Below, in pieces: positions 1-40,449 of a stretch of DNA of 64,000 nt. This DNA is from Candidatus Saccharimonadales bacterium (lineage in GTDB: Bacteria > Patescibacteriota > Saccharimonadia > QS-5-54-17), in assembly GCA_040903985.1 (NCBI GenBank), contig JBBDUI010000002.1, positions 104,204-168,203 of the forward strand. The letters are read 5' to 3'. The translations under genes were made by a program, and so were the position numbers. The stretch's first letter is position 1. Each line of letters opens with the position of its first letter. The notes under the pieces were generated by a model. It made no database searches. It was not told the DNA's origin and worked only from the letters and a program-made list of their open reading frames with translations.

Positions 1-865
1 GCTAACTGGAATTGAGGTCACGCCCGACATAGCCCGACAGCCGGTTACGGCCGTCATAATCGAGAACTCACCCAACGCACGACCCCAGTCGGCCCTAAAT
101 GCTGCCGACATCGTCTTTGAGGCCGTAACTGAAGGGGGTATCACTCGTTTCTTAGCCTTCTTCCAGCAGCAAAACCCCGGTAAGATCGGGCCAGTCCGTA
201 GTCTACGTCCGCCCTTCCTCGATTGGATCATGGGTTTCGATGCACCGTTTGCCCATGTCGGAGGTAGCGCTCAGGCATTACAGCTAGCTGCGCAGCGTGG
301 CGCTAAGAGTCTGAATCAATTCAGTAACGGCGACGCCTACTACCGTAGTAACGATCGCGTAGCCCCCCACAATATGTACACTTCTATCAGTAGTTTACGC
401 GCCCTACAGAAAAGCCGTGGTTACAAGCCGAGCTCGTTTAAGAAGATTCCCCGCAGCGATGATGCTCCGGCTGCCGAGCCGGTCGCCACCCGCATTACGG
501 TCGATTTCTCTAGTTCTCTCTATCAGGCCCAGTTTCACTACCAGGCTGAAAATAACAGTTATAGCCGTTACCTAGCCGGTAGCCCGCATATCGACCGCGA
601 GACCGGTGAGGCAATAGAGACTAAGAATGTAATCATTATCAAGATGCCTTCGCGCCAGAACGGCCAATATGTAGAAATGGACACCATCGGTAGCGGTGAC
701 GCAGTACTATTTAAAGATGGTACCTCTCGTAATATTCGCTGGCGCCAGAGCAGCTATAACGACCGCATCGAACTGCTGGATGGAGAGGGCGCCGAGATTA
801 AGCTTAACCGCGGCAAAAGCTGGTTCAGTATACTACCCAGCGGTAGAACGTTAACGGTCGAATGA
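1..865 (+). CDS. DUF3048 (YerB-like) family protein, 5' end outside the window
   Basis: The frame is open from position 2 with no stop before the listed ORF 230..865. The upstream translation (VTAVIIENSPNARPQSALNAADIVFEAVTEGGITRF) resembles the conserved DUF3048 N-domain. Confidence 0.55.
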   Translation, partial: LTGIEVTPDIARQPVTAVIIENSPNARPQSALNAADIVFEAVTEGGITRFLAFFQQQNPGKIGPVRSLRPPFLDWIMGFDAPFAHVGGSAQALQLAAQRGAKSLNQFSNGDAYYRSNDRVAPHNMYTSISSLRALQKSRGYKPSSFKKIPRSDDAPAAEPVATRITVDFSSSLYQAQFHYQAENNSYSRYLAGSPHIDRETGEAIETKNVIIIKMPSRQNGQYVEMDTIGSGDAVLFKDGTSRNIRWRQSSYNDRIELLDGEGAEIKLNRGKSWFSILPSGRTLTVE

Positions 866-6895: not shown

Positions 6896-7246
6896 TCAGT
6901 GCCTAGCCGGGAATCCGATGGAGCACGAGCTCACCTGGATATAACCCCTGCGTGAACGATAGTCGAACAAGCCATTCATGTGCAGAGGAAATACTCCCTC
7001 CACGCTCTTGTCCTCGATGCGGCCGACGAACTCAAAGGCGTTAACCCTAAGGTCGTCACCATCCCAATGCCTAATGCTGTCACCATCCCAATGCCTAAGG
7101 CCAGTGATGACTGCCTCGCGATGGCAGTCGGCGACGCAGAACACCACTGTATGCGGGTTCTGCTCATCAAAGGCATACTTCAGCGCATCACACAGTCCGT
7201 CTCGAGAAGGTCCGTCCGTGAGGGGAAGTCTTTCGATGGAAGCCAT
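6896..7246 (-). CDS. Hypothetical protein (116 aa) containing a 24-bp tandem duplication
   Basis: The internal ATG at 7246 with AAGGAG SD is preferred over the track start at 7348, which would overlap the tRNA. Tandem 24-bp repeat at 7055..7102 encodes RHWDGD twice. Confidence 0.5.
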   Translation of the reverse strand: MASIERLPLTDGPSRDGLCDALKYAFDEQNPHTVVFCVADCHREAVITGLRHWDGDSIRHWDGDDLRVNAFEFVGRIEDKSVEGVFPLHMNGLFDYRSRRGYIQVSSCSIGFPARH

Positions 7247-23167: not shown

Positions 23168-23383
23168 CTATCTAGGCACGAAGAGACGGATACGCTTACC
23201 GGAGGTGATAGCCGACTGCCACTGGCGTAGCACGGAAGGGGGGAGGTTGAAGGTCACCTCGACTCGACCGTCCTGCAACTGGCGGGTACCGGTTGGGTAG
23301 TAGCGGCCCCGAGAACGACGCAGACGTCCCGGTGATACCTGCGGCATTAACATTACATCGTGATATTGAAGAGCGCGAGCCAT
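23168..23383 (-). CDS. Hypothetical small basic protein (71 aa)
   Basis: ATG start. Basic N-terminus. Confidence 0.35.
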   Translation of the reverse strand: MARALQYHDVMLMPQVSPGRLRRSRGRYYPTGTRQLQDGRVEVTFNLPPSVLRQWQSAITSGKRIRLFVPR

Positions 23384-23535
23384 AGGAAACCCCCTTTATT
23401 TAACTACTATTAACTTAGTCTTAGTATATACGAACAATAACCGAACATGCAAGTCTTGTTTTATAGAAAATATGTGCGGATTGACGATTAATTTGATTAA
23501 TATATTGATAACAATGACTGTTATACTGACTGGTA

Positions 23536-25056
23536 ATGATGCCGACCTACTTATCGAAATCGAACTTCATGCACTGGCTAATTCACCCGGCCTATCTCTG
23601 GCTAGAGAAGCATGAGAAGAAACGCTTACCGCCCATCACCCAGGCCGATGAATTTATGTTTAGTAAGGGCCACGACTTTGAAGCAGAAGCACGGAAGCTA
23701 TTCCCAGAAGGGAAGTTGGTTGATGCAAAACCTTGGGAGTTTGCCCAGCTCAAAGCCCAGACTGTCGCCTTAATGGAGGCTAGGGAGGAGACTATCTTTC
23801 AAGCTACTGCCTTCACTGAGCGCGGTCTACTGGTTAAAAGCGATATCTTAAAAAGACGGGGGGAGGTCTGGGACTTGTACGAGGTGAAAAGCTCGACCCG
23901 GGTCAAGGATGACCATTTAACCGATCTTGCTTTCCAAGCCGTCACTTGGGCCGAAGCCGGCATCACCATTGAAGAGGTTTACGTGCTCTACGTCGATCGG
24001 GAATATGCTCGTGGAGAGAAACTAGAGCCGGAACGACTGGTACGGCAGGAATGTGTTAGCGAGGCCGTTATGGCCCGAATCCCTGGTGTAGAGCGGCAGA
24101 TACCGGCAGCGCTGGCCACGCTAGAACGCAACAGTTGTCCCGATCTTGACCCGAGTCACGCAGGCAACTTAGGTGTCTGGCTACCACTCTACTTTCACCT
24201 CAACCCAGAGTTAGCTGCTGACCATCCCCTGCGACTAGCTCAGCTTAAACCGGAAGATCTGGCCCGACTACAGCAGCTTGGAGTCGAAAGTCTAACCGAA
24301 ATCGAACGCTATGATGGTTTCAACGCCCGTCAGCAGAGCCAGATCAAGGCCTGGCAGATGGAGTCAAGTATAAACCATTCCGAGATCGCGAACTTCCTGA
24401 ATAAGCTCGAGTTTCCGCTCTGGTTCTTAGATTACGAAACGATCTCTCACGCCGTACCGCTTTATCCCGGCACCAAGCCATACCAGGATGTACCTTTTCA
24501 GTACTCCTTGCATAAGCTCGATAGTCCGACGGCCGAGCTCAAACACTTTGAGTATCTCTCCACTAGTACCGAGTTTCCGGTACCTAAACTGCTAGAGCAG
24601 CTACAACAGGACTTAGATGGGCTAGGCAGTATATTGGTCTGGTACCAGAACTTTGAGAAAGGGATGAACGCCCGGATGGGTGAATTTTGCCCCGAGTACT
24701 CCGAGTGGCTAGCGGCCGTTAACGGCCGCATTCGCGACCTGATGATCCCGTTCTCTAGCGGCTGGTACGTCGATAAGCGTTTCGTCGGCTCGGCCTCGAT
24801 TAAGAATGTCTTGCCAGTACTAGCGCCGAAGCTGAGCTACAAGACACTAAACGTGCAGGACGGTGGTAGTGCCCAAGCCGTCTGGTATGATGCGGTCTTC
24901 AACGATCGTGGTAGCGCCAAGACCTACGACAACCTACTGCAGTACTGCGCTCTCGACACTCTGGCCATGGTCGAGATCTACAACTTCCTAATTCGTCTCA
25001 GTCGAGACGATGAGCGGCCGGCAACTGGACAGCTGGAACAGGCCCAGCTTTTCTAA
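23536..25056 (+). CDS. DUF2779 domain protein (N-terminal PD-(D/E)xK-like nuclease plus C-terminal RNase H-like exonuclease fold)
   Basis: LSKSNFMHWLIHPAYLW N-terminus. FLDYETISHAVPLYPGTKPYQDVPFQYSLH block characteristic of DUF2779. Confidence 0.7.
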   Translation: MMPTYLSKSNFMHWLIHPAYLWLEKHEKKRLPPITQADEFMFSKGHDFEAEARKLFPEGKLVDAKPWEFAQLKAQTVALMEAREETIFQATAFTERGLLVKSDILKRRGEVWDLYEVKSSTRVKDDHLTDLAFQAVTWAEAGITIEEVYVLYVDREYARGEKLEPERLVRQECVSEAVMARIPGVERQIPAALATLERNSCPDLDPSHAGNLGVWLPLYFHLNPELAADHPLRLAQLKPEDLARLQQLGVESLTEIERYDGFNARQQSQIKAWQMESSINHSEIANFLNKLEFPLWFLDYETISHAVPLYPGTKPYQDVPFQYSLHKLDSPTAELKHFEYLSTSTEFPVPKLLEQLQQDLDGLGSILVWYQNFEKGMNARMGEFCPEYSEWLAAVNGRIRDLMIPFSSGWYVDKRFVGSASIKNVLPVLAPKLSYKTLNVQDGGSAQAVWYDAVFNDRGSAKTYDNLLQYCALDTLAMVEIYNFLIRLSRDDERPATGQLEQAQLF

Positions 25057-25205
25057 CTAAGCATTTGCAATTACGTTTCGGCTGGGTTACATATATAAGA
25101 GCTCGCAACTTCAGGTTCGAGCGAGCTCGCTATCATTTTTAATATTTTATTCCCTGCCAGACTGTACCGGCTATCAATAAGTAATAGATAAGGACCTTTT
25201 ACAAT

Positions 25206-27500
25206 ATGAGCAAAAACATCGTCATCGTCGAGTCGCCAGCTAAGGCCAAAACCATCGAGAAATTCCTCGGTCCCGATTTCAGCGTCACCTCTAGCTACGG
25301 CCACATCCGCGACCTACCGAAGAAAAGCACCGGCATCGACATCGAGAACGACTTTGCTCCAACCTACGAGATTAGTCCAGATAAGAAAAAACGTGTGAGC
25401 GAACTGAAGAAACAGGTTAAAGCTGCCGAAACTGTCTGGCTCGCCACCGATGAAGATCGAGAAGGAGAGGCCATCGCCTGGCACTTATGGCAGGCACTAG
25501 ACCTAGACAAAAAAGAGGTTAAACGCATCGCCTTTCACGAGATCACTAAAACGGCAGTACAGGAAGCGATCAAGAACCCCCGCACTGTCGATCAGAACCT
25601 AGTAGATGCACAGCAAGCCCGCCGGGTACTCGACCGTCTAGTCGGCTACGAGGTCTCTCCAGTACTATGGCGTAAAGTCCGACCAGGTTTAAGCGCCGGC
25701 CGTGTCCAGTCCGTAGCCGTACGTCTAATCGTCGAACGTGAACGTGAGATCGAAAACTACACACCGGAACACAATTTTAAGATCAACGCCCACTTTAATA
25801 TCCAAACTGGGGGGGAGATCGTCGCCGAACTACCAAAAGCACTCGACACCTATGATGCGGCAAATCAGTTCATGAAAGCGGCCGTTGACGCCACCTTTAG
25901 CGTCGACGAGGTCGAAACCAAGCCTTCAACCCGTAATCCAGCAGCCCCGTTTACTACGTCTAGCCTGCAGCAAACGGCCGCCCGCAAACTCGGCTTTAGC
26001 GTGCGCCAAACTATGACCCTAGCTCAACGACTGTACGAAGCAGGACATATCACCTACATGCGTACCGATAGTGTAGCTCTGGCTAGCAGCGCTACAGCCC
26101 AGGCCGCAAAACTAATCGAGCAGACTTACGGTAAAGATTATCACCAGCCACGAACCTTCAAAGCTAAGGCCGGCGCCCAGGAAGCACACGAAGCTATCCG
26201 TCCCACTGACTTCAAACGCGAGGAAGCTGGGGGTGACGCCCAGCAGCAGAAGCTATATGCTCTGATCCGGGCTCGCACCATAGCTAGTCAGATGGCCCCG
26301 GCCCAACTAGAGAAGACAAGCATACATATTAAGAGCTCAAACCACACCGAACGTCTCATAGCTAAAGGTGAGGTGGTGCAGTTTGCCGGTTTCTTAAAGG
26401 TCTACCAAGACAGCAAGGTAGCCGACACTCTTTTACCCCGCGTCGAACCCAGCGATGTACTCGAGCTAACTACACTTGAAGCTCGTGAAACCATCAAACG
26501 CGGACCGACCCGATACAATGAGGCAGCCCTCGTCCGTACCTTAGAGGAGATGGGTATCGGCCGACCATCGACCTACGCCCCGACAATCTCAACGATCCAG
26601 ACGCGCGGTTACGTAGAGAAGGGCGATGTAGAGGGAACAGAGCAAACTATCAAGATAATCACTCTCATTGACAACAAACCGATAGAAACAGAAGAAACCG
26701 TGCTCTATGGCCGTGACACTAATAAGCTCTTGCCAACCCAAATCGCGCTGCTAGTAAACGATTTCTTAACTAAAAACTTTGCTAGCATCGTCGACTATGA
26801 CTTCACTAAGGAAGTAGAAGAAGAGTTCGACCGTATCGCTGATGGCAAAGAGCGCTGGAACGCTATGATCGCTGATTTCTATGGCCCGTTTCATAAAAGT
26901 ATCGAGGCCGCCGAAGACCTCAGTCGGGAAGAGGCGAGTGGGGCGCGTGAGGTCGGCATCGACCCGAAAACCAAGAAACCAATTATCGCCCGCATGGGTC
27001 GCTACGGTCCGATGCTACAGCTCGGTCATGCAGAAGACGAAGAGGAGAAGCCCAAGTTCGCACCCATCCCACCAGGTAGGAAGCTGCATGAGATTACTCT
27101 AGATGAGGCGCTGGAGCTGTTTGCTCTACCCCGCACGGTAGGAAAGACCGAAGACGGAGAAGAAATCACTACCAACTTCGGCCGGTTTGGCCCCTATGTC
27201 AAGGTCGGCTCGACCTACGCTGCTATCGGCGATGCCGGTGACCCATTTAGTATCGATGAGGCTACGGCTAGACGGCTAATCGCCGAGAAGCTAGAGAAGG
27301 CTCGCAAGACCGAAATCGCAACTTTCAACGGTATCCGGGTGCTTGATGGCCGTTATGGTCCATACGTAACAGACGGGAAGAAGAACGCTCGCGTACCAAA
27401 AGAGATGAAACCGGAAGAGATAACTGAGGAACAGGCTAAAGAGCTCTTAGCCAAAGCTCCGGCTCGTAAAAAGCGCCGCCGCCGTCCGGCGCGCTCCTAG
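25206..27500 (+). CDS. topA: DNA topoisomerase I (type IA)
   Basis: TOPRIM IVIVESPAKAKTIEKFLG. Active-site region YITYMRTDS. C-terminal basic tail. Confidence 0.9.
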   Translation: MSKNIVIVESPAKAKTIEKFLGPDFSVTSSYGHIRDLPKKSTGIDIENDFAPTYEISPDKKKRVSELKKQVKAAETVWLATDEDREGEAIAWHLWQALDLDKKEVKRIAFHEITKTAVQEAIKNPRTVDQNLVDAQQARRVLDRLVGYEVSPVLWRKVRPGLSAGRVQSVAVRLIVEREREIENYTPEHNFKINAHFNIQTGGEIVAELPKALDTYDAANQFMKAAVDATFSVDEVETKPSTRNPAAPFTTSSLQQTAARKLGFSVRQTMTLAQRLYEAGHITYMRTDSVALASSATAQAAKLIEQTYGKDYHQPRTFKAKAGAQEAHEAIRPTDFKREEAGGDAQQQKLYALIRARTIASQMAPAQLEKTSIHIKSSNHTERLIAKGEVVQFAGFLKVYQDSKVADTLLPRVEPSDVLELTTLEARETIKRGPTRYNEAALVRTLEEMGIGRPSTYAPTISTIQTRGYVEKGDVEGTEQTIKIITLIDNKPIETEETVLYGRDTNKLLPTQIALLVNDFLTKNFASIVDYDFTKEVEEEFDRIADGKERWNAMIADFYGPFHKSIEAAEDLSREEASGAREVGIDPKTKKPIIARMGRYGPMLQLGHAEDEEEKPKFAPIPPGRKLHEITLDEALELFALPRTVGKTEDGEEITTNFGRFGPYVKVGSTYAAIGDAGDPFSIDEATARRLIAEKLEKARKTEIATFNGIRVLDGRYGPYVTDGKKNARVPKEMKPEEITEEQAKELLAKAPARKKRRRRPARS

Positions 27501-27580
27501 TTTCTCCACAATTAGCATCAATTTTCAATTGACACTAGTTTATCGTTGTTTTATAATCATATTAACTTAAGGATCGAATC

Positions 27581-28594
27581 ATGGAGACAACCGCTACCCC
27601 TGCGCTCAACATCCAGCAAATTGCTGCCAACATCCTCGACACCATCGATAAAGAACGCGAACGAGAAATCATCACGCGACGCTTCGGCCTGCATGGTCGC
27701 AAGGAGACTCTAGAGGAGATAGGTAATCTGCTTGGCATCACCCGTGAACGCGTACGCCAGATCGAAAAACAGGCGCTCGATAAACTACAGCAGATCGAAC
27801 ACCCATATCGCGAAACCCTAGAGCAGCACTTTACTGCCGCTCTAGAAGCCCTGGGTAGAATTGCCCCCTTGCATGAAGTAAGCGCCCACTCAGGCACCGA
27901 GGATCACGCCCACGTCAACTTCTTGGCACACCTGATTCCAGAAGTAGCCGTCATCCCAGAAAACGATCATTTCTACCACAGTCTAGCTCTGAGTTCACAC
28001 CACGACGTTAAAAGCGTTAAACAGCTCCACGATGAGTTAATTAAAACCGTCAAACAACACAAACAACCGCTCAGCCTGTCTGAACTGCACCAGAGCTTCG
28101 GCCAAGACATAGAGGAGCACCACCTCCACGGTCTAGCCCGCTCCAGTAAACTGCTGGCCACCCTAGATGAGCGCTGGGGGCTAGCCAGTTGGCCTCAGGT
28201 CAACCCGAAAAGCATTCGAGATAAAATCTATATTATACTGCAGCGCGAACAGAAGCCGATGCACTTTAGCGACATTGCTGAGAACATCAAGAACTCCGAT
28301 TTTCGGCGTAAGAACGTGACCACCCAAGCCATCCATAACGAATTAATCAAGGACAAGCGTTTCGTCCTAGTCGGACGGGGAATTTATGCCTTAAACGAGT
28401 GGGGCTTCAGTAAAGGAACAGTAGCCGACGTGATCGAGAAGGTGCTGAGCGAAGAGTCACCACTACACCGAGATGAGATAATCCAGCGTGTTTTAAAACA
28501 ACGCCATGTAAAACCGACGACAATTATACTAAACTTACAAGGGAAGGAGCAATTTAAGCGAGTGGCCAAAGCCACCTACGCTTTAGCTGAATAA
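27581..28594 (+). CDS. Sigma-70 region-4-like HTH plus C-terminal HARE-HTH domain protein
   Basis: N-terminal EIITRRFGLHGRKETLEEIGNLLGITRERVRQIEKQALDKL (sigma r4). C-terminal MHFSDIAENIK...RFVLVGRGIYALNEWGF (HARE-HTH as in RNAP delta). Confidence 0.6.
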   Translation: METTATPALNIQQIAANILDTIDKEREREIITRRFGLHGRKETLEEIGNLLGITRERVRQIEKQALDKLQQIEHPYRETLEQHFTAALEALGRIAPLHEVSAHSGTEDHAHVNFLAHLIPEVAVIPENDHFYHSLALSSHHDVKSVKQLHDELIKTVKQHKQPLSLSELHQSFGQDIEEHHLHGLARSSKLLATLDERWGLASWPQVNPKSIRDKIYIILQREQKPMHFSDIAENIKNSDFRRKNVTTQAIHNELIKDKRFVLVGRGIYALNEWGFSKGTVADVIEKVLSEESPLHRDEIIQRVLKQRHVKPTTIILNLQGKEQFKRVAKATYALAE

Positions 28595-31254
28595 TGAATG
28601 TAATTTTCGAGATTATCTTTACGCTCATCCAATTCCTGGGCCGCCTACTGTTTGACTGGAATGGCTGGATTCTAGTAGTGGGCATTCTAGCTTACCTAAT
28701 CTGGCAAAACACCCGCAAACAACGCTGGGTGAGTGACTCCAGCTATGCACTGCTAATGCTGGAGGTCCCGCGGGACAACGACAAGCGCGAACTGTCAGCC
28801 GAGCAGTTATTTGCCAGCCTACACGGTATCCTGCGCCCCAAGCAGGAGCTACTGCGTGAAGGAGCGATCCAGGAGCACATCAGTTTCGAAATCGCTTCGG
28901 TTGGACAGCGAATCCGTTTTTATATCTGGACGCCACACCACTTGAAAAACTTCGTCGAAGGACAGGTATATGCTCAGTACCCTAGCGTAAATATCCTCGA
29001 GATTACCGAAGATTACGCCCGGACCGAGCAACCAGAGGACTCCTACACTCAGTCGGTCGAGCTAACGCTACAAAACAGCGACTACCTGCCAATCCGCACC
29101 TTTAATAGTTTCGAGGTCGACCCTTTAGGCGGGATTACCGCCGTACTAGCTAAGCTGGAAGAGAACGACGAGCAGGTCTGGATTCAGGTACTGGCCCGAC
29201 CATTAGAAGACAGCTGGCACCGCAAAGGTGAGGCCTTCATTAATAAGGTTAGAAATGGCCGAGCCGGTAGTAGTGATGTAGCTGGCGATTTCTTAGCCAG
29301 TTTGCAGCGACTACTACGAGATTTCTTCGTAGCCCTCTGGCGACCACCGGAAGGTGATGGAGGGGCCGGAAAAAAACCGGAGATCTCCGATCAGCAAAAG
29401 GCGATGGCTCAAGCCGCCAGCGATAAGATCTCAAAATTAGGCTACGAGGTTACTATCCGCCTACTTCACACCGGTAACGACAAAAATCTGGCCCGACTAC
29501 GTATCCAGGCTTTAGTCGGCGCCTTCAAGCAGTTTAACGACACCACCAATAGCTTCAAGGTGAAGAAGACCTACTACCAGGATGATGCGCTCTCCCGCTA
29601 TAAGGCTCGCTTGTTTATTGATAAAGGTATTATCTTAAATATCGAGGAGCTAGCCAGCCTGTACCACTTACCTCATTCTAATGTCGAGACCCCTAGCATG
29701 GTCTGGGCTAATTCCCGTACAGCCGAACCACCATCAAATCTGCCCACCACTAAGGACGTACCGGGCGATCAGCTTAGCCCCTTGGGTACTACCAATTTCC
29801 GCGGCCACAACCGCCAGTTCGGCCTCAAGCGTAACGACCGTGGCCGGCACACCTACGTGGTAGGGCAGACCGGAACCGGTAAATCCTACTCCTTATTACT
29901 ACTCGCTCTCTCCGATATCTACCATGATCATGGCTTCGCTGTCATCGACCCCCATGGCGACCTTGCTACCGATGTCCTACGCTACATACCGGAACATCGA
30001 GTAAAAGATGTAGTCTATTTTAACCCTTCAGATACCGATTTTCCCATCGCTTTTAACCCACTAGAAGTCACCGATCCTAGCCTTAAAAACCACATCTCAT
30101 CAGAGGTAGTGGGCGCACTTAAACGTATGTTTGGCTACTCCTGGGGTCCCCGGCTTGAGTACATCTTACGCTATACGATCTTAGCCCTGTTAGATTCGCC
30201 TAATTCGACCCTACTAGGTATCACCCGTATGCTGACTGAGAAAGACTTCCGAGCCGATGTTATAGCCAAGGTAAAAGACCCGGTGGTACGTAACTTTTGG
30301 GTTAACGAATTCGCCTCATGGAACGAAAAGTTCGCCTCTGAAGCCGTAGCCCCAATCCTAAACAAGGTCGGTGCCTTCACCGCTAATCCCTTGATTCGTA
30401 ACATCATCGGTCAGCCGACCAGCGCCTTTAACGTGCGAGCCATGATGGATGAAGGCAAGATATTAATCGTTAACCTCTCTCGCGGTCAGGTAGGGGAGGA
30501 CAACGCTGCCACCCTGGGGGCTTTGATGGTGACGAAGATCCAGCTGGCAGCTATGTCTCGAGCTAGCATTGCCCGCATTGAAGACCGCCGGCCCTTCCAA
30601 CTCTACGTCGACGAATTCCAGAACTTTGCCACCGACTCCTTCGCCGTGATTCTATCCGAAGCACGCAAGTACGGCCTCAACCTAACCATCGCTAATCAAT
30701 ACATCTCACAGATGCCCCAAGAGGTGCGCGACGCCGTTTTCGGTAACGTCGGTAGTATCATATCCTTCCGAGTCAGTGCTGATGATGCACCATATCTCGC
30801 CAAATACTTTGCGCCCACCTTCGAAGGGGAGGACCTGATTAAGCTTAATAACCGCCACTTCGTCATTAGTATGAGCATCGACGGAGAAAAAGTTCCGGCC
30901 TTTACCGCTCTCTCGCTCAATGTACCGGCCAGTGAGTCCGATTTTATCCCCCAGATTATCACTGAGACGCGTAATAACTTCAGTTCTTCCCGGGCCGATG
31001 TCGAGGCCCAGATCAACGCCTGGGCCGAGCCAAAGCGAGGCAGTGAAGGGGCCAGACAACCCCAAGCTCAAGCAAACGGTGGCCGTTCACCCCGTCATTC
31101 CCAGCAAAAGCCATCAGAGAAAGCTCAGCGCTCCACCAAACAGCCCCAGCACGTCCCCAAGACACAGTCCCACCGTACCACTCCGGCCACCGAACCGGCC
31201 CCGGATGGCAAGATCAACCATGGTGAGGTGATCCGGCTACGCAAACGTCCCTAA
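28594..31254 (+). CDS. Membrane-anchored HerA/FtsK/VirD4(TraG)-like P-loop NTPase (886 aa)
   Basis: Two N-terminal TM helices. Walker A VVGQTGTGKSYSL. Walker B LYVDEFQNF. Low-complexity basic C-terminus. TAATG start overlap with the upstream gene. Confidence 0.7.
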   Translation: MNVIFEIIFTLIQFLGRLLFDWNGWILVVGILAYLIWQNTRKQRWVSDSSYALLMLEVPRDNDKRELSAEQLFASLHGILRPKQELLREGAIQEHISFEIASVGQRIRFYIWTPHHLKNFVEGQVYAQYPSVNILEITEDYARTEQPEDSYTQSVELTLQNSDYLPIRTFNSFEVDPLGGITAVLAKLEENDEQVWIQVLARPLEDSWHRKGEAFINKVRNGRAGSSDVAGDFLASLQRLLRDFFVALWRPPEGDGGAGKKPEISDQQKAMAQAASDKISKLGYEVTIRLLHTGNDKNLARLRIQALVGAFKQFNDTTNSFKVKKTYYQDDALSRYKARLFIDKGIILNIEELASLYHLPHSNVETPSMVWANSRTAEPPSNLPTTKDVPGDQLSPLGTTNFRGHNRQFGLKRNDRGRHTYVVGQTGTGKSYSLLLLALSDIYHDHGFAVIDPHGDLATDVLRYIPEHRVKDVVYFNPSDTDFPIAFNPLEVTDPSLKNHISSEVVGALKRMFGYSWGPRLEYILRYTILALLDSPNSTLLGITRMLTEKDFRADVIAKVKDPVVRNFWVNEFASWNEKFASEAVAPILNKVGAFTANPLIRNIIGQPTSAFNVRAMMDEGKILIVNLSRGQVGEDNAATLGALMVTKIQLAAMSRASIARIEDRRPFQLYVDEFQNFATDSFAVILSEARKYGLNLTIANQYISQMPQEVRDAVFGNVGSIISFRVSADDAPYLAKYFAPTFEGEDLIKLNNRHFVISMSIDGEKVPAFTALSLNVPASESDFIPQIITETRNNFSSSRADVEAQINAWAEPKRGSEGARQPQAQANGGRSPRHSQQKPSEKAQRSTKQPQHVPKTQSHRTTPATEPAPDGKINHGEVIRLRKRP

Positions 31255-32090
31255 AATCAGGCTGAGTTCTAGAGAGTAGTAGTTAGGTAGCAGAGGTCTT
31301 ACATAACTAGAAAAGATAAACTTATAAGTTCTGGAACGTTAAGTTACGTCTCTACCCGGTCCTGAAGAAATCGATATTTTATAAGTGTGAGATACTATGA
31401 ATTGAGTGTATGGGTGTTTGTAATTTGTTCGGTTTCAGTAGAAATAGCTAATTTACAGGGGTCATCTGGCTGATTGGATCTAAAATGGCTATAGGGGTGG
31501 TCATCTGTTAATTATCAGGCGATTGAGACGCAGCGAAGACCCAAACAGATAATATAAACCCTAAGAGGCAGATTTGCTCGCCATAACGCATGGAAGCATA
31601 GCCAAGGTCCGAAGTGGTTAGGAAAGAGTGGAGTGGCTTGATTCGAACGGAGCATAATCCAGAAGAAAGGTCAGAGTGATCCGCCAGCCAGACGGAGAGA
31701 AGGTAAACTCGAACGTGAATGTAGTGCGTAATGCTACGTCGCACAATGTATATTTTGCGAAGCTTGAATATAGTGTCCATACACGACTCAATACACCTAG
31801 GCTCTAGGGCACTACCGACGAGAATAGGGGGCTGTTAAGCCTTTAACGCTCCTCCGGCAACTACACTGTAGTCTTTAACTCACTCCCTTAGTGGTCGCAC
31901 TGAGCTCTGAATTCAACTCGCGTAATAACCACTAGCCCCAGCCTGTAGCCTGACTACCCGCTGGGGCCTCAGGCACTGGGTAAAATGTGATGTACGTCAC
32001 AGTTTTCCACAGCTCGGAGTCAAATATACTATGACCATTTTATTTGACAACTACCCCCTTCTATCCTCTCCTACTCCCCCTCCCTTATAT

Positions 32091-32119
32091 TTGACACTAA
32101 CAATTTCTGTATTTATAAT
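32091..32119 (+). promoter_or_regulatory. Perfect-consensus sigma70-type promoter (TTGACA-17-TATAAT), oriented antisense to ftsQ
   Basis: ttgaca ctaacaatttctgtatt tataat. Exact hexamers with 17-nt spacing. Confidence 0.5.
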
Positions 32120-32191
32120 ATGTTTTTTCTGCACTTAGCCCATTAACGAAAAATATGAACAATAACCGAACAAAGGTAGGAGAGTGGGAGA

Positions 32192-32965
32192 CTAGCGCCA
32201 ATAGACCTTATACGGCAAGCGGACATCGATATACTGCCGAATGGTCTCGCCCTGTTCGGCCGCTTGAGCCTGTACGCGGGCGATATTGTCCAACTGCACC
32301 GCTATATCCTCTTGTGTGGCAAAACGAATCTGATAACCCGCCGCTAGAGTTACGTGTAGTTCGCTAGTCGTCTCGAGTACACGAAGCTCGGTCCAGTCTA
32401 GTCGGCTGTCGACAATCGCCTGGACAAAACTAATAAAGTTATCGGGTACAACCTGTCTCCCTAACTCCACCGGAAGATTAGCCGCATCCCGTACTAGCGG
32501 CAGCTCAGTTGATGCATCACGAGTGATAGCGACACCATTACGATCGAGCAAATAGACCTCTTCCCCACTCTGCCACTGTAGGCTGGGCTCATGTTCTACC
32601 GCAGTCAATTGGAGCGTACGCTGATGCCACTGTCGCTGTAACTCAAAAGCAGCGATGGAATCGCTATACTTACCAGCTAGCTCTTCCAAGGACGCTTCAC
32701 TCACCTGCCACTGAAAGTTAAATCGGCTTTCGGCTGTCACCTGCACCTCACGCTCGAGGTCAGGATCCAAATCACTGATCACCTCAATCGAAGTGATGAA
32801 GCTGTACCAGCCCACCAGCCCGAGCACTACTAAGAGCAAGACGGCGGCCGCTTGAGCCGGCCACGAGACGGAGCGTGAAGCTTTGGCCGCTGCCTTGCCC
32901 CGATGGTAGGTCGCTTGAAACTGGGGTTTGGCCTCTGGACTAGGACGGCGACGGGCGCGGGCCAT
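32192..32965 (-). CDS. ftsQ: Cell division protein FtsQ/DivIB-like (TM plus POTRA)
   Basis: Position after murG in the dcw cluster. N-terminal TM and extracytoplasmic domain. Weak sequence signature. Confidence 0.6.
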   Translation of the reverse strand: MARARRRPSPEAKPQFQATYHRGKAAAKASRSVSWPAQAAAVLLLVVLGLVGWYSFITSIEVISDLDPDLEREVQVTAESRFNFQWQVSEASLEELAGKYSDSIAAFELQRQWHQRTLQLTAVEHEPSLQWQSGEEVYLLDRNGVAITRDASTELPLVRDAANLPVELGRQVVPDNFISFVQAIVDSRLDWTELRVLETTSELHVTLAAGYQIRFATQEDIAVQLDNIARVQAQAAEQGETIRQYIDVRLPYKVYWR

Positions 32966-34059
32966 TACTCTTCACCTTCTGCCGAGTAGGGCTCTAATAC
33001 CATGGTAGCAATCCGCTCAGCCGCATCAGCGCGGGCAAAAGCTGAGATACGCTCCTGTAGTTGAGTCCGGTATCCACTGTCACTAGTCAGACGCTCCAAA
33101 GTATCAGCTAGATGCTGCGGGTCTAACTCACTCTGGGGTAGTAGTACAATAGCCCCATGTTCAGCAAGTGCTAAGGCATTCTGGTGTTGATGGTTACCGC
33201 TCAAACTAGGATGCGGTACGATCAAGCTAACCTTACGCAGAGCGGCCAGTTCCGCTAGCGTGTTAGCCCCAGCCCGAGCGATTACGACGTCAGCCAGCTG
33301 CAGAGCTGCTGCCATCTCTTCCAGTAGAAACGGATACTGGTGGTAGTGCGGTCTACTGAGTGCAGCCGTTTTATTATCCCCGGTGATATGAATGATCTCA
33401 AAACGATCAGTAATCTCAGCTAATCGAGTAACGCAGCTATTCAAACTCTCGGAGCCCAGACTACCGCCCACGGCTAAGATGACCGGTTTATCGCTAGCGA
33501 TACCGAAACTAGCCCGTGAGGGTGAGGCCGCTTCTAGCAGCTCGATGCGAATGGGATTACCTAAGTTCACGTAGCCGGGCAGCGGAAAACCACTGATTCG
33601 ATAGGGCGTCAGCCGAGATAGCAATCGGTTGGCCAGACCCGGAACCGAGTCTGACTCGTGGATTACAAAGGGAATACGTAAGCACCAGGCCGCTAAACCG
33701 ACCGGCACACCGACATAACCACCCTTGATGAAGATGCGCTCGGGCCGAAGGCGAATCAGCAAAGCCAGACTCTGTAGCAGACCGATACCGACCCGTACCA
33801 AATCACGCACGTTGAACCAAAGTGTCTTGAGATCAAGCCAACGCTGCCGCCGAGTGCGGTTATGATAACGGCGAACCTTACCGGCCTTGATCTGGTGAAG
33901 ATGAACGCCGCTTGAGGCCATCAGCTCTCGCTCCCGCCGTTCACCGAGGCCGATATAGTGAATATCTACCGTTTTAGCTTGAGATTTGAGGGCTCGGACG
34001 ACGGCTAGAATGGGTGTTATGTGCCCGCCGCTGCCCCCGCCTGCGACTACGATCCGCAT
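32965..34059 (-). CDS. murG: Undecaprenyldiphospho-muramoylpentapeptide beta-N-acetylglucosaminyltransferase MurG
   Basis: MRIVVAGGGSGGHITPILAV N-terminus. GT28 family. Confidence 0.9.
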   Translation of the reverse strand: MRIVVAGGGSGGHITPILAVVRALKSQAKTVDIHYIGLGERRERELMASSGVHLHQIKAGKVRRYHNRTRRQRWLDLKTLWFNVRDLVRVGIGLLQSLALLIRLRPERIFIKGGYVGVPVGLAAWCLRIPFVIHESDSVPGLANRLLSRLTPYRISGFPLPGYVNLGNPIRIELLEAASPSRASFGIASDKPVILAVGGSLGSESLNSCVTRLAEITDRFEIIHITGDNKTAALSRPHYHQYPFLLEEMAAALQLADVVIARAGANTLAELAALRKVSLIVPHPSLSGNHQHQNALALAEHGAIVLLPQSELDPQHLADTLERLTSDSGYRTQLQERISAFARADAAERIATMVLEPYSAEGEE

Positions 34060-35305
34060 GGGGTCTCCTTACTGTATATTTCGAAACATTTACTACGATA
34101 CCGAGAGCCGCCAGCATGAATACTAGACTACTGCCTCCATAACTGACGAACGGTAGTGGAATACCGGTTAAAGGTATAATACCAAGCATGGCCATCATAT
34201 TCACCGTTGCCTGCATTCCGAGCCAGACCGTAATACCCACTACCAGCAGTTGAGAAAACCGATCCGGAGCGTTCTCAGCCACGCGCAGCATCCGATAAAT
34301 CAGCAGACAGAAGAGGATGATTATAGTGCTGGCTCCGATAAAACCAAACATCTCACCGATAATAGCGAAGATCGAATCGTTAGCAGCCTCCGGTAAGTAA
34401 CCATAAACCTGAATACTCCGTCCCAAGCCTAAGCCGAAAAGACCACCGGAGCCGATAGCGATTAAGGCCTGATGTAAGTGATAACCGGTCTCAGCCAGAT
34501 TCTCGCTAGGACTGAAGAAGGTCCGGACTCGCTCCATCCGGTGGGGAAAAAGAACAATGTTAAGTAGCCCAAAGGCCGAACCTGCCCCGAGCAAGATAGC
34601 TAGCTGCTGCCAGCGCACCCCGCTCATAAAAAATACCGCCACCACGATACTAGAGATTACCAACATCGTACCCATATCTTTCTGGTGGATGAGCACAAAA
34701 ATCGAAACGATACCGAGCAAGATAACTACCGGCCAGAGCGTCAATTTATAGTTAGCCAACTCACTATCCTTCACCCGGGTAAACCAGCTAGCAACCAGGA
34801 CGGCAACGGTCAGCTTGATCAGTTCGGCCGGTTGAAAACTAAGCGGACCAAGACCTACCCAGCGTGTAGCGCCCTTCTCAGTGATAGCGACACCCGGAAT
34901 GAACATCAGTAGCAAAGCCACTCCGGTTCCGATTAGGAGTAACGGCAAGAGCTGAGTACGCCAGCGCGACCAGTGAATCCGACTAAAGATAAAAAAGGCT
35001 ACCAGAGCCACTCCGATATTACGTAGCTGGCCGTACATAAAGTAGTTGCGATTAACATCATCGACCAGCTTATGAGATAGAATCGGGCTAACAGCATAGA
35101 TGACAACTAGGCCCAGCAGGGTCAGAAGCAAAGTTATAAGGATTAGGCTGACGTCAGCCCGATGACGACGGCCCGCTCCAACTACCCCATCTGAACTACT
35201 GCCTCGTCTAATTAACTGGCGGGCAGAATAAGCAGGTTTCACAACTGTCCGCCGAGAACGGCTATCACCAATCCCAGCATGGCTAACATCGCTCCTAGAA
35301 TCCAA
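33974..35305 (-). CDS. ftsW: SEDS-family peptidoglycan glycosyltransferase FtsW
   Basis: ALIAIGSGGLFGLGLGRS and IFAIIGEMFGFIGA motifs. The start may be internal to the listed ORF. Confidence 0.85.
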   Translation of the reverse strand: MDSRSDVSHAGIGDSRSRRTVVKPAYSARQLIRRGSSSDGVVGAGRRHRADVSLILITLLLTLLGLVVIYAVSPILSHKLVDDVNRNYFMYGQLRNIGVALVAFFIFSRIHWSRWRTQLLPLLLIGTGVALLLMFIPGVAITEKGATRWVGLGPLSFQPAELIKLTVAVLVASWFTRVKDSELANYKLTLWPVVILLGIVSIFVLIHQKDMGTMLVISSIVVAVFFMSGVRWQQLAILLGAGSAFGLLNIVLFPHRMERVRTFFSPSENLAETGYHLHQALIAIGSGGLFGLGLGRSIQVYGYLPEAANDSIFAIIGEMFGFIGASTIIILFCLLIYRMLRVAENAPDRFSQLLVVGITVWLGMQATVNMMAMLGIIPLTGIPLPFVSYGGSSLVFMLAALGIVVNVSKYTVRRPHADRSRRRGQRRAHNTHSSRRPSPQISS

Positions 35306-36276
35306 AAACGCATCGTAACTTTAGTTTCTGGCCAGCCGATAGCCTCGAAATGGTGGTGTACCGGAGCGGAGAGGAAGATCTTTCGTTTAAAGATTTTCTT
35401 CGACATAATCTGAAGGCTACTGGAAGCGATCTCTAACACGAAGATACCGGCTATAATAGGTAGCAGCAGTACAGTGTCAGTTAAAAGCGCCACCACCGCC
35501 AGTGTAGTACCGAGAGCAAAAGAACCGACATCACCCATAAAGAAGCGAGCAGGATGGATGTTAAACCAGGTATAGGACAAGAGCGATCCGACCACGGTAG
35601 CACAGAAGATAGCGATACCGAAGTTACCCTGCACCATAGCGATAACGGTATAAACCATAAAGACTATGGCTAATAATCCACCGGCTAGCCCGTCAAGACC
35701 ATCGGTGATGTTGACCGCATTGGCGGTCGATACAATGACAAAGATGAAGAGCGGAATAATCAACCAGCCGAGCGAGATAGTATCAAAGAACGGCACTGAC
35801 AACGAAGTATAACCCAGCTTAGTGTAGGCATAAACACTTAAGACAGTGGCGATCGAGAGGATGAGACTGAATTTAATCGGTGTACGAAGCCCAGCCATAC
35901 CGGTGTTCTGGCCGCGGATGTTGATAAAATCGTCGATTAGCCCGACTCCCCCTGCCGTGATTAGAGCCGCCAGGGGTAGTAATGTCTGGGCCGTACTAAG
36001 GTTAAATAGCACCGTAATCAAGGAGATTGCTACCACCATGATCACACCGGCCATCGTCGGGATATGACGTTTGTGCTTAGCGGCGTGAAGCTTATGAAAA
36101 ACTGGTGCCTTCTCTCCAGTGGTGGCAGTGTCCCGAATTCGCTTCCAAGCTTTATACTTATAGGCTAGATGAGTATAGATAGGGGTTAGAGCCATTGAGA
36201 CCAGAAATCCGGCAAAAGCAGCCAAGGTAATCTCGAGTAATATAGGCTCTATGGAGGCGAAGTCTAAGTTTTGCAT
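35239..36276 (-). CDS. mraY: Phospho-N-acetylmuramoyl-pentapeptide transferase MraY
   Basis: NAVNITDGLDGLAGG motif. Polytopic. Confidence 0.9.
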   Translation of the reverse strand: MQNLDFASIEPILLEITLAAFAGFLVSMALTPIYTHLAYKYKAWKRIRDTATTGEKAPVFHKLHAAKHKRHIPTMAGVIMVVAISLITVLFNLSTAQTLLPLAALITAGGVGLIDDFINIRGQNTGMAGLRTPIKFSLILSIATVLSVYAYTKLGYTSLSVPFFDTISLGWLIIPLFIFVIVSTANAVNITDGLDGLAGGLLAIVFMVYTVIAMVQGNFGIAIFCATVVGSLLSYTWFNIHPARFFMGDVGSFALGTTLAVVALLTDTVLLLPIIAGIFVLEIASSSLQIMSKKIFKRKIFLSAPVHHHFEAIGWPETKVTMRFWILGAMLAMLGLVIAVLGGQL

Positions 36277-36327
36277 AATGTTGATTTTACTGCCTTACTA
36301 ATACCTGTTAATTATAACATAATTCGT

Positions 36328-38043
36328 TTATTCCGAGGGTATGCCGGCGTATTTAACCAGCCAATCGATAATGTCAGCAAAGACCGGTCCAGCCCCACCG
36401 GAACCAGCGTAGGTGACATTATGTGGATCATCGATCCGTACCATCATGATGTAACGCGGGTTATCTACCGGCGCGAACCCGATGAAAGACCCGATGTATT
36501 CACCGTCCAGATAACCACCATCTGGGCTTGGGATCTCCGAAGTACCTGTCTTCCCGCCTACCTTATGCTCAGGAATTAGTCGCGTAATCGCCCAACCACC
36601 ACCTTTCTGCACCGAATCATCCATCATCCGACGAATACTAGCCGTGGTGCTGTCGGTCACTACTGACTCCCCTACCACCTCCGGCTCAGTATCGATCACT
36701 GTACCGTCGGGCGCAATCTCATAGTCCACCAGATGAGGCCGATACATCGTACCACCGTTAATCACGGCTGCCATCGAAGTGGTCATTCTAACCATAGTAG
36801 TGGCAATTCCCTGGCCGAAGGTCATGTTGGCATAGTTAACCGCTCCCACCGACTCTGGAGTATTCATGTGCAGCTCCGGCTCACCGGGCTGTTCGATGTC
36901 GGTACGAGTCGTAAGCTGCAGATTACCGGTGAAAAAACTGTGTAGGGCCGTCTTAGCCTGGGTGTTTATCTCGCCACCGCCTAGCCGTTCCAGAATATAT
37001 ACGACCCCAGTGTTGATCGACTCGATGATGATGTCAGTCATCGATTTAGTTCGATCTCCCCCACCTTCGGTATTGCGAATCACAGCATCATCAACCTTAA
37101 CCGCCCCGGCATCATAGAAGGTCTCTTCCTCGTCGATCGCGCCACCATTGAGTCCGGCCGCCATAGTAAAAACCTTGAAGCCGGATCCGGGCTCAAACGT
37201 ACCGGTAGCAGCCACGTTAGAAAAGCGACTGTAATCTTCAACTTCGCTGTACTTATTCGGGTCGAAACTCGGATAGTTGGCCATAGCCACTACCTCACCG
37301 CTATTCGGATCCATGATGACAGCGTGAGCCGAGCGAGCGCTTGTCGCCTTAACGTGCTCAGCTAGCACACTCTCCACCTTGGCCTGAACATTACGATCGA
37401 TGGTTAAGTAAATGTCACTACCGTGCTGCGGTGCACGCTGAATATTATCACTAGTAGCGATTGGTACCCCGTTGGAATCGGTTTCAATATCAAACAATCC
37501 TGGCGTTCCGCTGAGTGAGGAGTCAAGGTACTCTTCGATACCATACTGACCCTCGCCGTCAGTATTGACAAAGCCCATCACCTGAGAGGCAAGACTACCC
37601 TCAGGATAAACCCTACGGTAGTTATCACTTAGGCCGATACCTGATATTTCTAGCTCCTCGATAGCCTGAGCGGCTTCAAGGGTGATTTCCCGCTCCAATC
37701 GCACGTAGCCATCAGCTGCCGTCAACTGCTCTGAGTAATCACGGCCTAAAGCTGCTTCCAGCCCGCTCACTACATCATCGAGATCAAATATATAACGGGT
37801 GTCGGCATAAAGCGTCTTAAGATTACGATTCATCGCCAATGGTACCGGCTCACCGCGGTCATAAGCATAAATTCGACCGCGCTGAGGGGCAATCTCGAAC
37901 TTCCGACTGTGTGACTGGCTAGCTAGAACACTAAAGTAGTCGTGCCGCACTAGCTGCAGATAACCTAAGCGCAGCAGCACTACTCCGGCGAGCGCTAAAA
38001 AAATAAGACCAATAACTTGTAGGCGTGACTGATTATCTATCAT
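36328..38043 (-). CDS. ftsI: Penicillin-binding protein FtsI (class B transpeptidase)
   Basis: SxxK (GSGFKV), SxN and KTGT (GGKTGTSE) motifs. N-terminal TM. Confidence 0.9.
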   Translation of the reverse strand: MIDNQSRLQVIGLIFLALAGVVLLRLGYLQLVRHDYFSVLASQSHSRKFEIAPQRGRIYAYDRGEPVPLAMNRNLKTLYADTRYIFDLDDVVSGLEAALGRDYSEQLTAADGYVRLEREITLEAAQAIEELEISGIGLSDNYRRVYPEGSLASQVMGFVNTDGEGQYGIEEYLDSSLSGTPGLFDIETDSNGVPIATSDNIQRAPQHGSDIYLTIDRNVQAKVESVLAEHVKATSARSAHAVIMDPNSGEVVAMANYPSFDPNKYSEVEDYSRFSNVAATGTFEPGSGFKVFTMAAGLNGGAIDEEETFYDAGAVKVDDAVIRNTEGGGDRTKSMTDIIIESINTGVVYILERLGGGEINTQAKTALHSFFTGNLQLTTRTDIEQPGEPELHMNTPESVGAVNYANMTFGQGIATTMVRMTTSMAAVINGGTMYRPHLVDYEIAPDGTVIDTEPEVVGESVVTDSTTASIRRMMDDSVQKGGGWAITRLIPEHKVGGKTGTSEIPSPDGGYLDGEYIGSFIGFAPVDNPRYIMMVRIDDPHNVTYAGSGGAGPVFADIIDWLVKYAGIPSE

Positions 38044-38383
38044 AGGAGACGTTGGCTTCCGGGACTAACCCGGCGGTAGCACTAGCACTTTCGATCCGAG
38101 CAACCGACTGCAGACGAGCCGCCTCTACCTGCAACTCCTGCTGCTCCTCTATCAACGTAGCCTGCTGCTGGCTTAACTCATTGATTTCATACCCGTAGAC
38201 GCTGGTTTTAGTGATTTGCGTCAAGTACAGCAGTGCTAGAACCCCGATAATAATAGCTAAGAATAAGGTCGATGTCACGGGTCCGAGGTGCTGCGAGGCA
38301 CGATAGCCGCCGAGCTGAGAGTTGCGACCTACTCGCCGTTGGCGGGAGGCTCTAGACTGGACTAATGCCTGTTGATAATACAT
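38033..38383 (-). CDS. ftsL: Cell division protein FtsL-like (TM plus coiled coil)
   Basis: Position between rsmH and ftsI. Single TM plus leucine-zipper-like segment. Confidence 0.6.
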   Translation of the reverse strand: MYYQQALVQSRASRQRRVGRNSQLGGYRASQHLGPVTSTLFLAIIIGVLALLYLTQITKTSVYGYEINELSQQQATLIEEQQELQVEAARLQSVARIESASATAGLVPEANVSYDR

Positions 38384-38575
38384 ATGTTTGTTTTCCTGTT
38401 TTGTTTCCTGCTAGAGCAAGGATTAGTTTGGTTTTTATTTTTATCGTTTTAGGTTATGTCACCTAGCTGCGGAAGTAGAGTTCCACAGCTAGGCGTTCAG
38501 GCCTACGCCCGAACTAAGCTTAGAACTTTGACTTCGACTTTTTGTGCTCGTAGGCTGTTGCCGAGAGCTTTTACT

Positions 38576-39511: not shown

Positions 39512-39822
39512 GTCAAGATCACCTAAGTAGCAGTCAGCTTTTTATGTTTGTGGTGTTTTTGTTTTAGTTGAACCCCGTCCGAGCCCGAAGGCTACTGGAG
39601 GGTTGCTATATCCCGCCGAAGCGGGAGTTGTGGTAAGGAATTAGAATAATTCCTTAAAAAAGAGAGACGTGTGAGGTGGAGTTGTTGTTTTGGAGATTTG
39701 AGGTGCGAGGGTTTTTTATCAGGTGTTATACCCTAAAACCACCCGCTGACTGCCACATAGCTGATCTCGAGCTTGTTTTTGTTTTTGTTTTTTAAAGGTG
39801 CCAATCAGAGTTTGATTACTAC

Positions 39823-40185: not shown

Positions 40186-40449
40186 ATTATTAATTCCCTT
40201 GGATTGCTTGGTGGGGCTTACCCACTGCTACCCACTACAACTAATATATAACGATTCAATACCCACGTCTAGGTAATATAGGGCGAATTTTTACCGAACA
40301 TAAGCCTAAATAGCCCAGGTTAAGCCATATAGCGCCTTGGCACCAGAAAGACCCGCTATATATGAGGACCCTTGGAGCGCTCTAGGTAGGAGCTGCCTCC
40401 ACCTAGACGACATATCGACATCGATAGCAGCTTAGTGTCGCGTAAACGG

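Follow-up and report, generated by a model that had tools for sequence, protein, structure and literature searches.

We analyzed a stretch of 64,000 nucleotides (nt) from a Candidatus Saccharimonadales bacterium (assembly GCA_040903985.1, contig JBBDUI010000002.1, positions 104,204 to 168,203 of the forward strand), referred to here as the window, and focused on the non-coding gap at the 3' end of its division and cell wall (dcw) operon. The dcw genes are arranged in the order mraZ-rsmH-ftsL-ftsI-mraY-ftsW-murG-ftsQ, and the last of them, ftsQ (32192..32965, minus strand; Pfam FtsQ_DivIB_C), ends with a stop codon at 32192-32194. Within the gap, a sigma70-type promoter on the plus strand faces ftsQ and is followed by a 16-nt sequence, referred to here as the box. 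On the far side of the gap lies a plus-strand gene string (23536..31254) that by Pfam encodes a DUF2779 (RecB/Cas4-like) protein, a topoisomerase, a protein with sigma-70 region 4 and HARE-HTH domains (sigma-r4/HARE-HTH) and a VirD4-like ATPase; a second copy of the box precedes this string. A preliminary description of this DNA had proposed that the promoter fires antisense into ftsQ and that the repeated 16-mer could be a shared regulatory box.

Promoter and box at the 3' end of the dcw operon

The promoter consists of a -35 hexamer TTGACA (32091..32096, plus strand; TTGACA(2) below), which is embedded in ATTTGACA, a 17-nt spacer and a -10 hexamer TATAAT (32114..32119, plus strand), and thus has the exact hexamers and spacing previously claimed for it. 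It is followed by ATGTTTTTT (32120..32128, plus strand), which comprises the discriminator and the expected start-site region; from this arrangement, transcription is predicted to start near 32126. That the promoter is convergent with ftsQ at the 3' end of the dcw operon was likewise borne out, ftsQ being the last gene of the operon and on the opposite strand. The complete 12 of 12 match to TTGACA-17-TATAAT is unique within 31200-40500. As had been stated, such a promoter is rare, with 0.012 perfect TTGACA-16..18-TATAAT matches expected per window in first-order Markov (Markov-1) simulations, though three occur (27529, 32091, and 49224). The two others, both with a 17-nt spacer and on the plus strand, lie 24 and 92 nt 5' of real start codons: the one at 27529-27557, inside the DUF2779-VirD4-like gene string, drives the sigma-r4/HARE-HTH gene starting at 27581, and the one at 49224-49252, inside the 3' end of a methyltransferase-like gene, drives rpmA (L27; start at 49345), which ends in a clean hairpin terminator (~49634-49665). 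Because these matches are far beyond chance and the other two front real genes, the perfect promoters of this genome appear to be genuine strong promoters.

The box, GAACAATAACCGAACA (GAAC-N7-GAACA; GAAC-AATAACC-GAAC), lies at 32157..32172 on the plus strand, as described previously, at about +31 to +46 of the promoter and close to ftsQ. A second exact copy does exist on the plus strand, in the intergenic region upstream of the DUF2779 gene as reported and 89 nt from its start; its position is 23432..23447, and the coordinates given previously (23433-23448) were one base off. The exact recurrence of a 16-mer within 64 kb has no significance by itself: simulated windows contained on average 1.56 repeated 16-mers and at least one in 65 of 100 Markov-1 simulations, and GAAC-N7-GAAC occurs three times in the window versus 1.84 expected. 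The exact identity of the two copies is thus not in itself beyond chance, and the significance of the box derives from its conservation at orthologous positions. Counted over 166 kb of DNA from the clade, [GA]AAC-N7-GAACA has 17 matches versus 2.1 expected, i.e. about 8-fold above chance, and 15 of the 17 cluster at orthologous sites.

Conservation of the gap next to ftsQ

We compared the gap of the window with those of seven further lineages, which were collected via their MurG homologues (roughly 50-60% identical). The region after ftsQ is non-coding and 0.7-0.9 kb long in all eight, and its elements follow the same order, which reads on the plus strand: ATTTGACAAC, a CT-rich block of ~41 nt, the invariant ATTTGACA, 17-18 nt, an A/T-rich -10 element, ATGTTTTTT, ~30 non-conserved nt, [G/A]AAC-N7-GAACA, a purine-rich block, and the ftsQ stop codon. 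The -35 hexamer TTGACA is invariant in 8/8 lineages; the box is also kept in all eight, its first half-site being AAAC in lineages L012 and L223; ATGTTTTTT is kept in six of the eight, L011 having ATATTTTTT; and the purine-rich block (AAGGTAGGAGAGTGGGAGA; 32173..32191, plus strand), which separates the box from the ftsQ stop codon, is present in all. The first part, i.e. ATTTGACAAC with a further TTGACA, TTGACA(1), at 32045-32050 and the CT-rich block (together 32045..32090, plus strand), is kept in 7/7 lineages reaching it (the contig of L010 ends inside the CT-rich block and was not counted for ATTTGACAAC), and the spacing from TTGACA(1) to TTGACA(2) is 47-50 nt and not in multiples of three. 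From the start of the -35 hexamer to the start of the box, the distances in the eight lineages are 66, 67, 69, 68, 67, 68, 68, and 69 nt, while the sequence between is not conserved. That this distance is fixed across unconserved sequence suggests that promoter and box function as a unit. In L012, a PIN gene instead of the VirD4-like gene follows the gap; because L012 keeps the gap without VirD4 next door, the gap travels with ftsQ.

The consensus -10 hexamer is found in the window alone, and the relatives have TTAAAT, TCTAAT, GTATAT, GTAAAT or TCTTAT at the same place. The weight placed on hexamer perfection in the preliminary description was therefore incidental, while the promoter itself is backed by the invariant -35 hexamer, the fixed distance to the box and the other perfect promoters that drive real genes. 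Because a tRNA-like gene in the window uses a TTGACA-17-TTTAAT promoter, the imperfect -10 variants of the relatives look usable.

A chance origin of the 16-mer and the promoter is ruled out by this conservation at orthologous positions. We also considered that the two boxes might be attachment (att) sites; this was rejected since synteny in relatives extends over both boxes and the segment between them, and no integrase was detected in the segment by Pfam. Assembly GCA_050486185.1 has the same order of a small open reading frame (ORF) (minus), DUF2779, topoisomerase, sigma-r4/HARE-HTH, VirD4-like, gap, ftsQ (minus) and murG (minus), and because this gene order is shared, the two 16-mers are not the ends of a recent insertion. 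The facts that most windows of 64 kb should contain an exact 16-mer repeat by chance, that the two copies are direct repeats flanking conjugation-type genes, and that the same 16-mer occurs in mobile elements of Capsulimonadaceae and Bryobacterales would all suit an explanation without function, by which the motifs are chance matches in an AT-rich spacer or att repeats from an 8.7-kb DUF2779-VirD4 insertion. Such an explanation does not account for both sites being kept orthologously, with variable spacers and in the same gene order, at about 50-67% protein identity, nor for the 8-fold excess of box matches, the segment without an integrase and the L012 gap without VirD4; we give it a negligible probability and, judging from the conservation data, consider it already refuted.

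Other sequences of the gap are also conserved. A 26-nt element (ACGTCGCACAATGTATATTTTGCGAC; 31742-31768) with the stem GTCGCA/TGCGAC is near-invariant in every gap reaching it, and a CRP/FNR-type palindrome (TGTGATGTACGTCACA; TGTGA-N6-TCACA, 31986-32001) followed by a DnaA-box-like TTTTCCACA (together 31986-32011) is found, both elements included, in most ftsQ gaps. Of note, a related genome encodes a Crp-type regulator that binds cyclic nucleotide monophosphates (L013, 6365-6982). A replication origin in the gap, as the DnaA-box-like sequence might indicate, was rejected because the cumulative GC skew is monotonic through the region. An invertible promoter flanked by inverted repeats was also rejected: the flanks have composition alone in common, not sequence, and the orientation is the same in 8/8 lineages.

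The divergent promoter region upstream of DUF2779

The second box lies in a 152-nt spacer between two divergent genes, an ORF of 71 amino acids (aa) (23168-23383, minus strand) and the DUF2779 gene (23536-25056, plus strand). In an alignment of the window with L003, L005 and L006, TATATAC-GAAC-N7-GAACA forms an island of identity in diverged sequence, and the spacer of the box on this side varies across lineages (AATAACC, ACAATAC, and GTAAACC). The invariant TATATAC belongs to TAGTATATA (23422..23430), which resembles a -10 element on both strands. On the plus strand, it would place a -10 element 1-4 nt before the box on the DUF2779 side; on the minus strand, it would complete a TTGCAT-16 nt-TATATA promoter on the side of the 71-aa ORF, with the box inside the spacer. 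The box is a putative control site of the DUF2779-VirD4-like gene string. Around the DUF2779 gene of L013, a relative of 46% identity, the box is absent, and because of this absence we regard the box as restricted to the clade.

The 71-aa protein is basic, is encoded by the first gene of an operon of small proteins and is 68-93% identical in four lineages. It has no sequence match in Pfam, NCBIfam or the PDB, and a recognisable DNA-binding fold was rejected on the basis of these searches; its AlphaFold model has a predicted local distance difference test (pLDDT) score of 57 and was not used. The operon behind the 71-aa gene (22114-23383, minus strand) encodes small proteins, some with a single transmembrane helix, and is kept in L005; the GC content reaches 57% in 22001-23000. 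Provided that the box is an SOS operator, these small proteins would be candidates for division inhibitors of the classical kind. In the gene string on the other side, the sigma-r4/HARE-HTH gene (27581-28594, plus strand) encodes a 337-aa protein with sigma-70 region 4 in its N-terminal part and a HARE-HTH domain (RNA polymerase delta-like); in NCBIfam, this protein is most similar to MzaA, the sigma factor that belongs to the MZA anti-phage system, and its position between the topoisomerase and the VirD4-like ATPase is kept.

Further boxes in the window

A variant box, GAATTTTTACCGAACA (TGTTCGGTAAAAATTC on the mraZ strand), lies upstream of mraZ (40285..40300, plus strand) and has a weight-matrix score of 12.6 bits, which is not significant alone. 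The 17-mer variant at mraZ is identical in three lineages (the window, L011, and L007); in L011 and L007, it is followed by TATATT/TATAAG and then by GTGGGTA repeats. Three such MraZ-type repeats (GACGTGGGTA … GTGGGTAgcaGTGGGTA; 40205-40265, minus strand) lie upstream of mraZ in the window, are kept in L007 and L011, and are probably the MraZ autoregulatory sites of the clade. These repeats and the box are alike in being direct repeats about one helical turn apart in a dcw regulatory region; yet, the GAAC box is distinct and lies upstream of GTGGGTA. MraZ was rejected as the protein that binds the box because its repeats are separate from the GAAC box and none is present at 32157 or 23432.

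At the far end of the gap, a degenerate inverted box (…GAAACCGAACAA; 31425..31442, minus strand) scores 11.6 bits in the window, and the corresponding inverted box is strong in L003 and L007 (20.9 bits), L011 (24.5 bits), and L012 (26.0 bits), while the copy of L223 matches the pattern. In L012, this distal box lies 63 nt upstream of the PIN-domain gene, in forward orientation. A possible weak box, GAACGATAGTCGAACA (6954..6969, plus strand), matches at 13/16 positions and scores 15.7 bits versus a null maximum of 15.9 bits; it is located 85 nt upstream of a 51-aa mini-protein gene (6714-6869, minus strand). This mini-protein consists of four DnaJ-type CxxCxGxG zinc-finger motifs, and the neighbouring ORF contains a 24-nt tandem duplication (7055/7079).

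Across these loci, the box is found in both orientations, in some cases within the spacer of a promoter, where it is not transcribed, and in others directly behind a -10 element; its half-sites GAAC(A) are 11 bp, i.e. one helical turn, apart, and its N7 spacer varies. Because of its two orientations, its placement in promoter spacers, the geometry of its half-sites and its variable spacer, we read the box as a protein-binding DNA site rather than an RNA element, and its sequence features make it a predicted operator for a dimeric regulator.

The box at recA and toxin genes of other Saccharibacteria

An exact scan of a genome collection for the 16-mer returned at least 120 loci, most of them single chance matches. 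Among the matches listed was L132, a metagenome-assembled genome (MAG) of a Saccharibacterium, in which TTGACA-tgttcgtagagtgttcgg-TATAGT-atttaa-GAACAATAACCGAACA-aggagggtaac-ATG precedes recA. This promoter carries two boxes, one (GTTC-N7-GTTC) in the spacer and one after the -10 element; the gene behind the double box matches Pfam RecA with E = 4.5e-140, and recX is next to it. A similar, related promoter is present in L143, the RecA of which is 82% identical to that of L132. Also among the matches listed was L043, a further Saccharibacteria MAG, with a box before a PemK/MazF toxin gene. The direct-repeat box is found at 3/80 recA loci related to that of L132, and we therefore rejected a general rule by which the box precedes recA in Saccharibacteria. 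The classical motif GAAC-N4-GTTC is found at 11/80 of these loci, with an upstream density of 0.47 per kb versus a background of 0.016 per kb. The proposal that the 16-mer is a shared regulatory box was strongly supported by these comparisons: its footprint is present at at least two orthologous loci in up to eight lineages and recurs at a recA promoter elsewhere in Saccharibacteria.

The same scan led to two groups of repeated sequences. In Capsulimonadaceae (OZ252240.1), at least 10 identical repeat copies (L025, L029, L070, L072, L073, L092, L093, L115, L125, and L126) contain AACCGAACAATAACCGAACA ~55 nt from the point at which their flanks diverge (…aaaaaacTTGACActatc), and this repeat resembles a multi-copy mobile element in which 11-bp units are repeated in tandem at subterminal positions. 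In many genomes of Bryobacterales, the 16-mer is part of a conserved stretch of ~100 nt (at least L044, L054, L057, L078, L082, L087, L088, L089, and L108); in L057, it lies directly beside the tyrosine-recombinase gene of an integrated element, and it is probably part of an att region. We did not count the Bryobacterales copies as evidence for LexA because they belong to an integrase-associated element and are uninformative in this respect.

Candidate regulators that bind the box

The direct repeat GTTC-N7-GTTC is the experimentally defined LexA box of Caulobacter and other Alphaproteobacteria, and SOS regulons characteristically hold recA, toxins, nucleases, and a division inhibitor. The genes beside the boxes described here form a small set in several lineages: recA-recX, a MazF-type toxin, a PIN toxin, the DUF2779 RecB/Cas4-like nuclease, a topoisomerase, and mraZ and the dcw operon. 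Because the box equals the direct-repeat LexA box and is associated with recA, toxin and nuclease genes, it is by analogy most likely an SOS-type operator, the likeliest binder being LexA, or a protein equivalent to it in function, with the direct-repeat recognition known from Alphaproteobacteria. The box shares with the alphaproteobacterial LexA box (Caulobacter, Rhodobacter; also in Acidobacterium) the half-site GAAC/GTTC, the 7-nt spacer, and the direct-repeat geometry; as LexA boxes do, it lies on or next to promoters, has two copies at recA-recX, and precedes toxin genes and nuclease- and topoisomerase-type genes. It differs in its extended consensus, GAAC-nnWAAC-CGAACA, of which the right half is much more conserved, and in its host, a Saccharibacterium. 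Unlike LexA boxes, the site next to ftsQ lies ~30 nt past the predicted start of a promoter without a gene behind it. Concerning the wider phylum, Sanchez-Osuna et al. 2017 are cited as reporting a direct-repeat LexA motif in Patescibacteria.

Our working hypothesis, in which we place about even confidence, is that promoter and box together form a cis-regulatory module that sits at the 3' edge of the dcw operon and is conserved across a small clade of Saccharimonadales, and that an SOS-type repressor gates a promoter antisense to ftsQ. Several observations weigh against it. Searches for lexA or an S24-peptidase gene were negative both in the 64-kb window (Pfam, ~48 ORFs) and in the clade loci (tblastn). 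The link to recA comes from a different Saccharibacteria lineage, L132, and not from the source genome, and even among recA loci related to that of L132 the direct-repeat box is infrequent, as described above. The -10 element is absent from L012 and imperfect in the other six of the seven relatives. An operator at +31 is unusual for LexA, the operator of which normally overlaps the promoter. Finally, a repressing box at the mraZ promoter would raise dcw transcription after damage, a poor fit to simple division arrest.

Alternatively, the box could be the operator of a clade-specific regulator other than LexA that coordinates division and DNA-processing genes, with recA as one member of its regulon. 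This regulator might be the 71-aa protein, controlling its own promoter, or a cell-cycle regulator; a response regulator of the OmpR type, which binds direct repeats spaced by 11 bp, would be another candidate. The 71-aa gene is as narrowly distributed as the box, both being absent from L013, and a box sits in the promoter of the 71-aa gene itself; the dcw operon has boxes at either end; the window encodes several response regulators; and neither the negative search for lexA nor the majority of Saccharibacteria-like recA loci without a box would be surprising. This explanation has to contend with the identity of GAAC-N7-GAAC to an experimentally defined LexA box, with the double box at recA-recX and the toxin-gene boxes, which are typical SOS features, and, as far as the 71-aa protein is concerned, with the lack of a recognisable DNA-binding domain. 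We consider it a serious alternative, if somewhat unlikely. With a binder other than LexA, the module would point to a new regulator, specific to the clade, connecting division with DNA-processing and type-IV-secretion-like genes, whereas under the SOS hypothesis direct-repeat LexA-type recognition would extend to another phylum. Next to nothing has been established on how Saccharibacteria and other bacteria of the candidate phyla radiation regulate transcription, and we here provide an operator, GAAC-N7-GAACA, a draft regulon and a promoter architecture.

The predicted transcript and its possible effect on division

From the predicted start (~32126), the distance to the ftsQ stop codon is 66 nt, and beyond it a transcript would be antisense to ftsQ. 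A terminator-like site was not found on the plus strand between the promoter and 36055, nor was an intrinsic terminator found after ftsQ on the minus strand. A six-frame comparison across lineages revealed no conserved ORF in the gap, only short matches of differing length in several frames, and a 38-aa ORF (32031-32147) was rejected as a hidden protein gene because it is not kept in frame among relatives. Using Rfam covariance models, only two tRNA hits in the window reached the gathering score, and the best hit within 31200-32250 had E = 1.5, i.e. noise. The 5' region of the putative antisense RNA has no stable fold (z = +0.8 versus shuffles), and a hairpin between the CT-rich and AG-rich blocks was rejected since it is no better than shuffles (z = -1.2 and -1.0). 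For both strands, folding of the gap centre is somewhat more favourable than that of shuffles (z = -2.65 and -2.22), with the strongest hairpin outside conserved columns, and a further RNA gene may lie within the gap.

Conceivably, the relevant promoter is instead on the minus strand, composed of a T-rich -35 element, the box in the spacer, and TATTTT, and drives a non-coding RNA into the gap, the TTGACA motifs serving another role. Boxes occupy promoter spacers at recA (box 1), the 71-aa gene and the L043 toxin gene; in most lineages, the minus strand has a -10-like TAnnnT after the box; and the conserved islands and the folding of the gap centre would be in line with such an RNA. That no TTG-type -35 element is conserved on the minus strand, that the plus-strand -35 hexamer never varies and keeps its distance to the box, that no Rfam match was obtained in the gap, and that the forward distal box of L012 precedes a real gene all speak for the opposite direction, making a minus-strand promoter quite unlikely. 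Indeed, the order of promoter, box and purine-rich (Shine-Dalgarno-like) block at ftsQ mirrors that of the L132 recA promoter, and because of this similarity and the forward box before the L012 PIN gene, we favour the plus-strand promoter.

Even with a plus-strand promoter, ftsQ might not be the target. Because the promoter is strong and conserved with no ORF behind it, and the dcw operon lacks a detectable intrinsic terminator on the minus strand, its product might be a discrete trans-acting small RNA or its activity a convergent block to read-through from the operon, with box and purine-rich block as RNA elements. That the box occurs in both orientations and inside non-transcribed spacers points to its being recognised as DNA; the 5' end showed no stable or conserved fold, and no terminator bounds a short RNA. 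Hence, we regard this explanation as very unlikely.

Returning to the hypothesis of an SOS-type repressor, its binding at the box would block the promoter or form a roadblock to the transcript. Upon DNA damage, the repressor would leave its site and antisense transcription would enter ftsQ and the upstream dcw genes, which would lower the expression of division genes. From the geometry, antisense control of the division operon is plausible. A further step would be that the damage checkpoint of these genome-reduced Saccharibacteria is this repressor-gated promoter, reading antisense into ftsQ-murG-ftsW, and not a protein of the SulA/YneA/SidA type, and that with the operator at mraZ both ends of the operon would be controlled; we put this forward tentatively and consider it unlikely. 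The proposed system would resemble SulA, YneA, SidA, SosA, and ChiZ in connecting a DNA-damage operator with the inhibition of division, and its operator is physically tied to division genes. These five are small proteins that act on FtsZ or the late divisome; in contrast, the promoter here has no ORF behind it, and the proposed effector would be antisense transcription or RNA. In E. coli, the StfZ antisense RNA, from the ftsA-ftsZ junction, and the small RNA DicF target ftsZ and reduce division; neither StfZ nor DicF is known to be controlled by LexA or to be conserved outside enterobacteria. The likeness to them would be an RNA directed against the mRNA of a division gene, and the difference is that the promoter here is located at the 3' end of the operon and faces ftsQ. 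Should the SOS hypothesis hold, it would suggest that damage and division are coupled by RNA or transcription in organisms without known inhibitor proteins.

Other features of the window

The tRNA-like gene mentioned above (7324-7465, minus strand; Rfam tRNA, 48 bits) has an insertion of ~79 nt in its anticodon arm and its TTGACA-17-TTTAAT promoter just upstream, and it was not called by ARAGORN. A 17-18-nt copy of the 3' end of tRNA-Glu (GGTGACCCCGGCGGGAT; 2900-2917 / 3072-3089) is located ~170 nt away from the tRNA itself; a 19-nt inverted repeat (3033/3060) lies between the two, and this copy may be the scar of an integrated element. Downstream of a pterin-4a-carbinolamine dehydratase gene, a perfect palindrome of ~30 bp (TTCAAAAAGTGTCCGATCGGACACTTTTTGAA; 21927-21958) could be a terminator or an operator.

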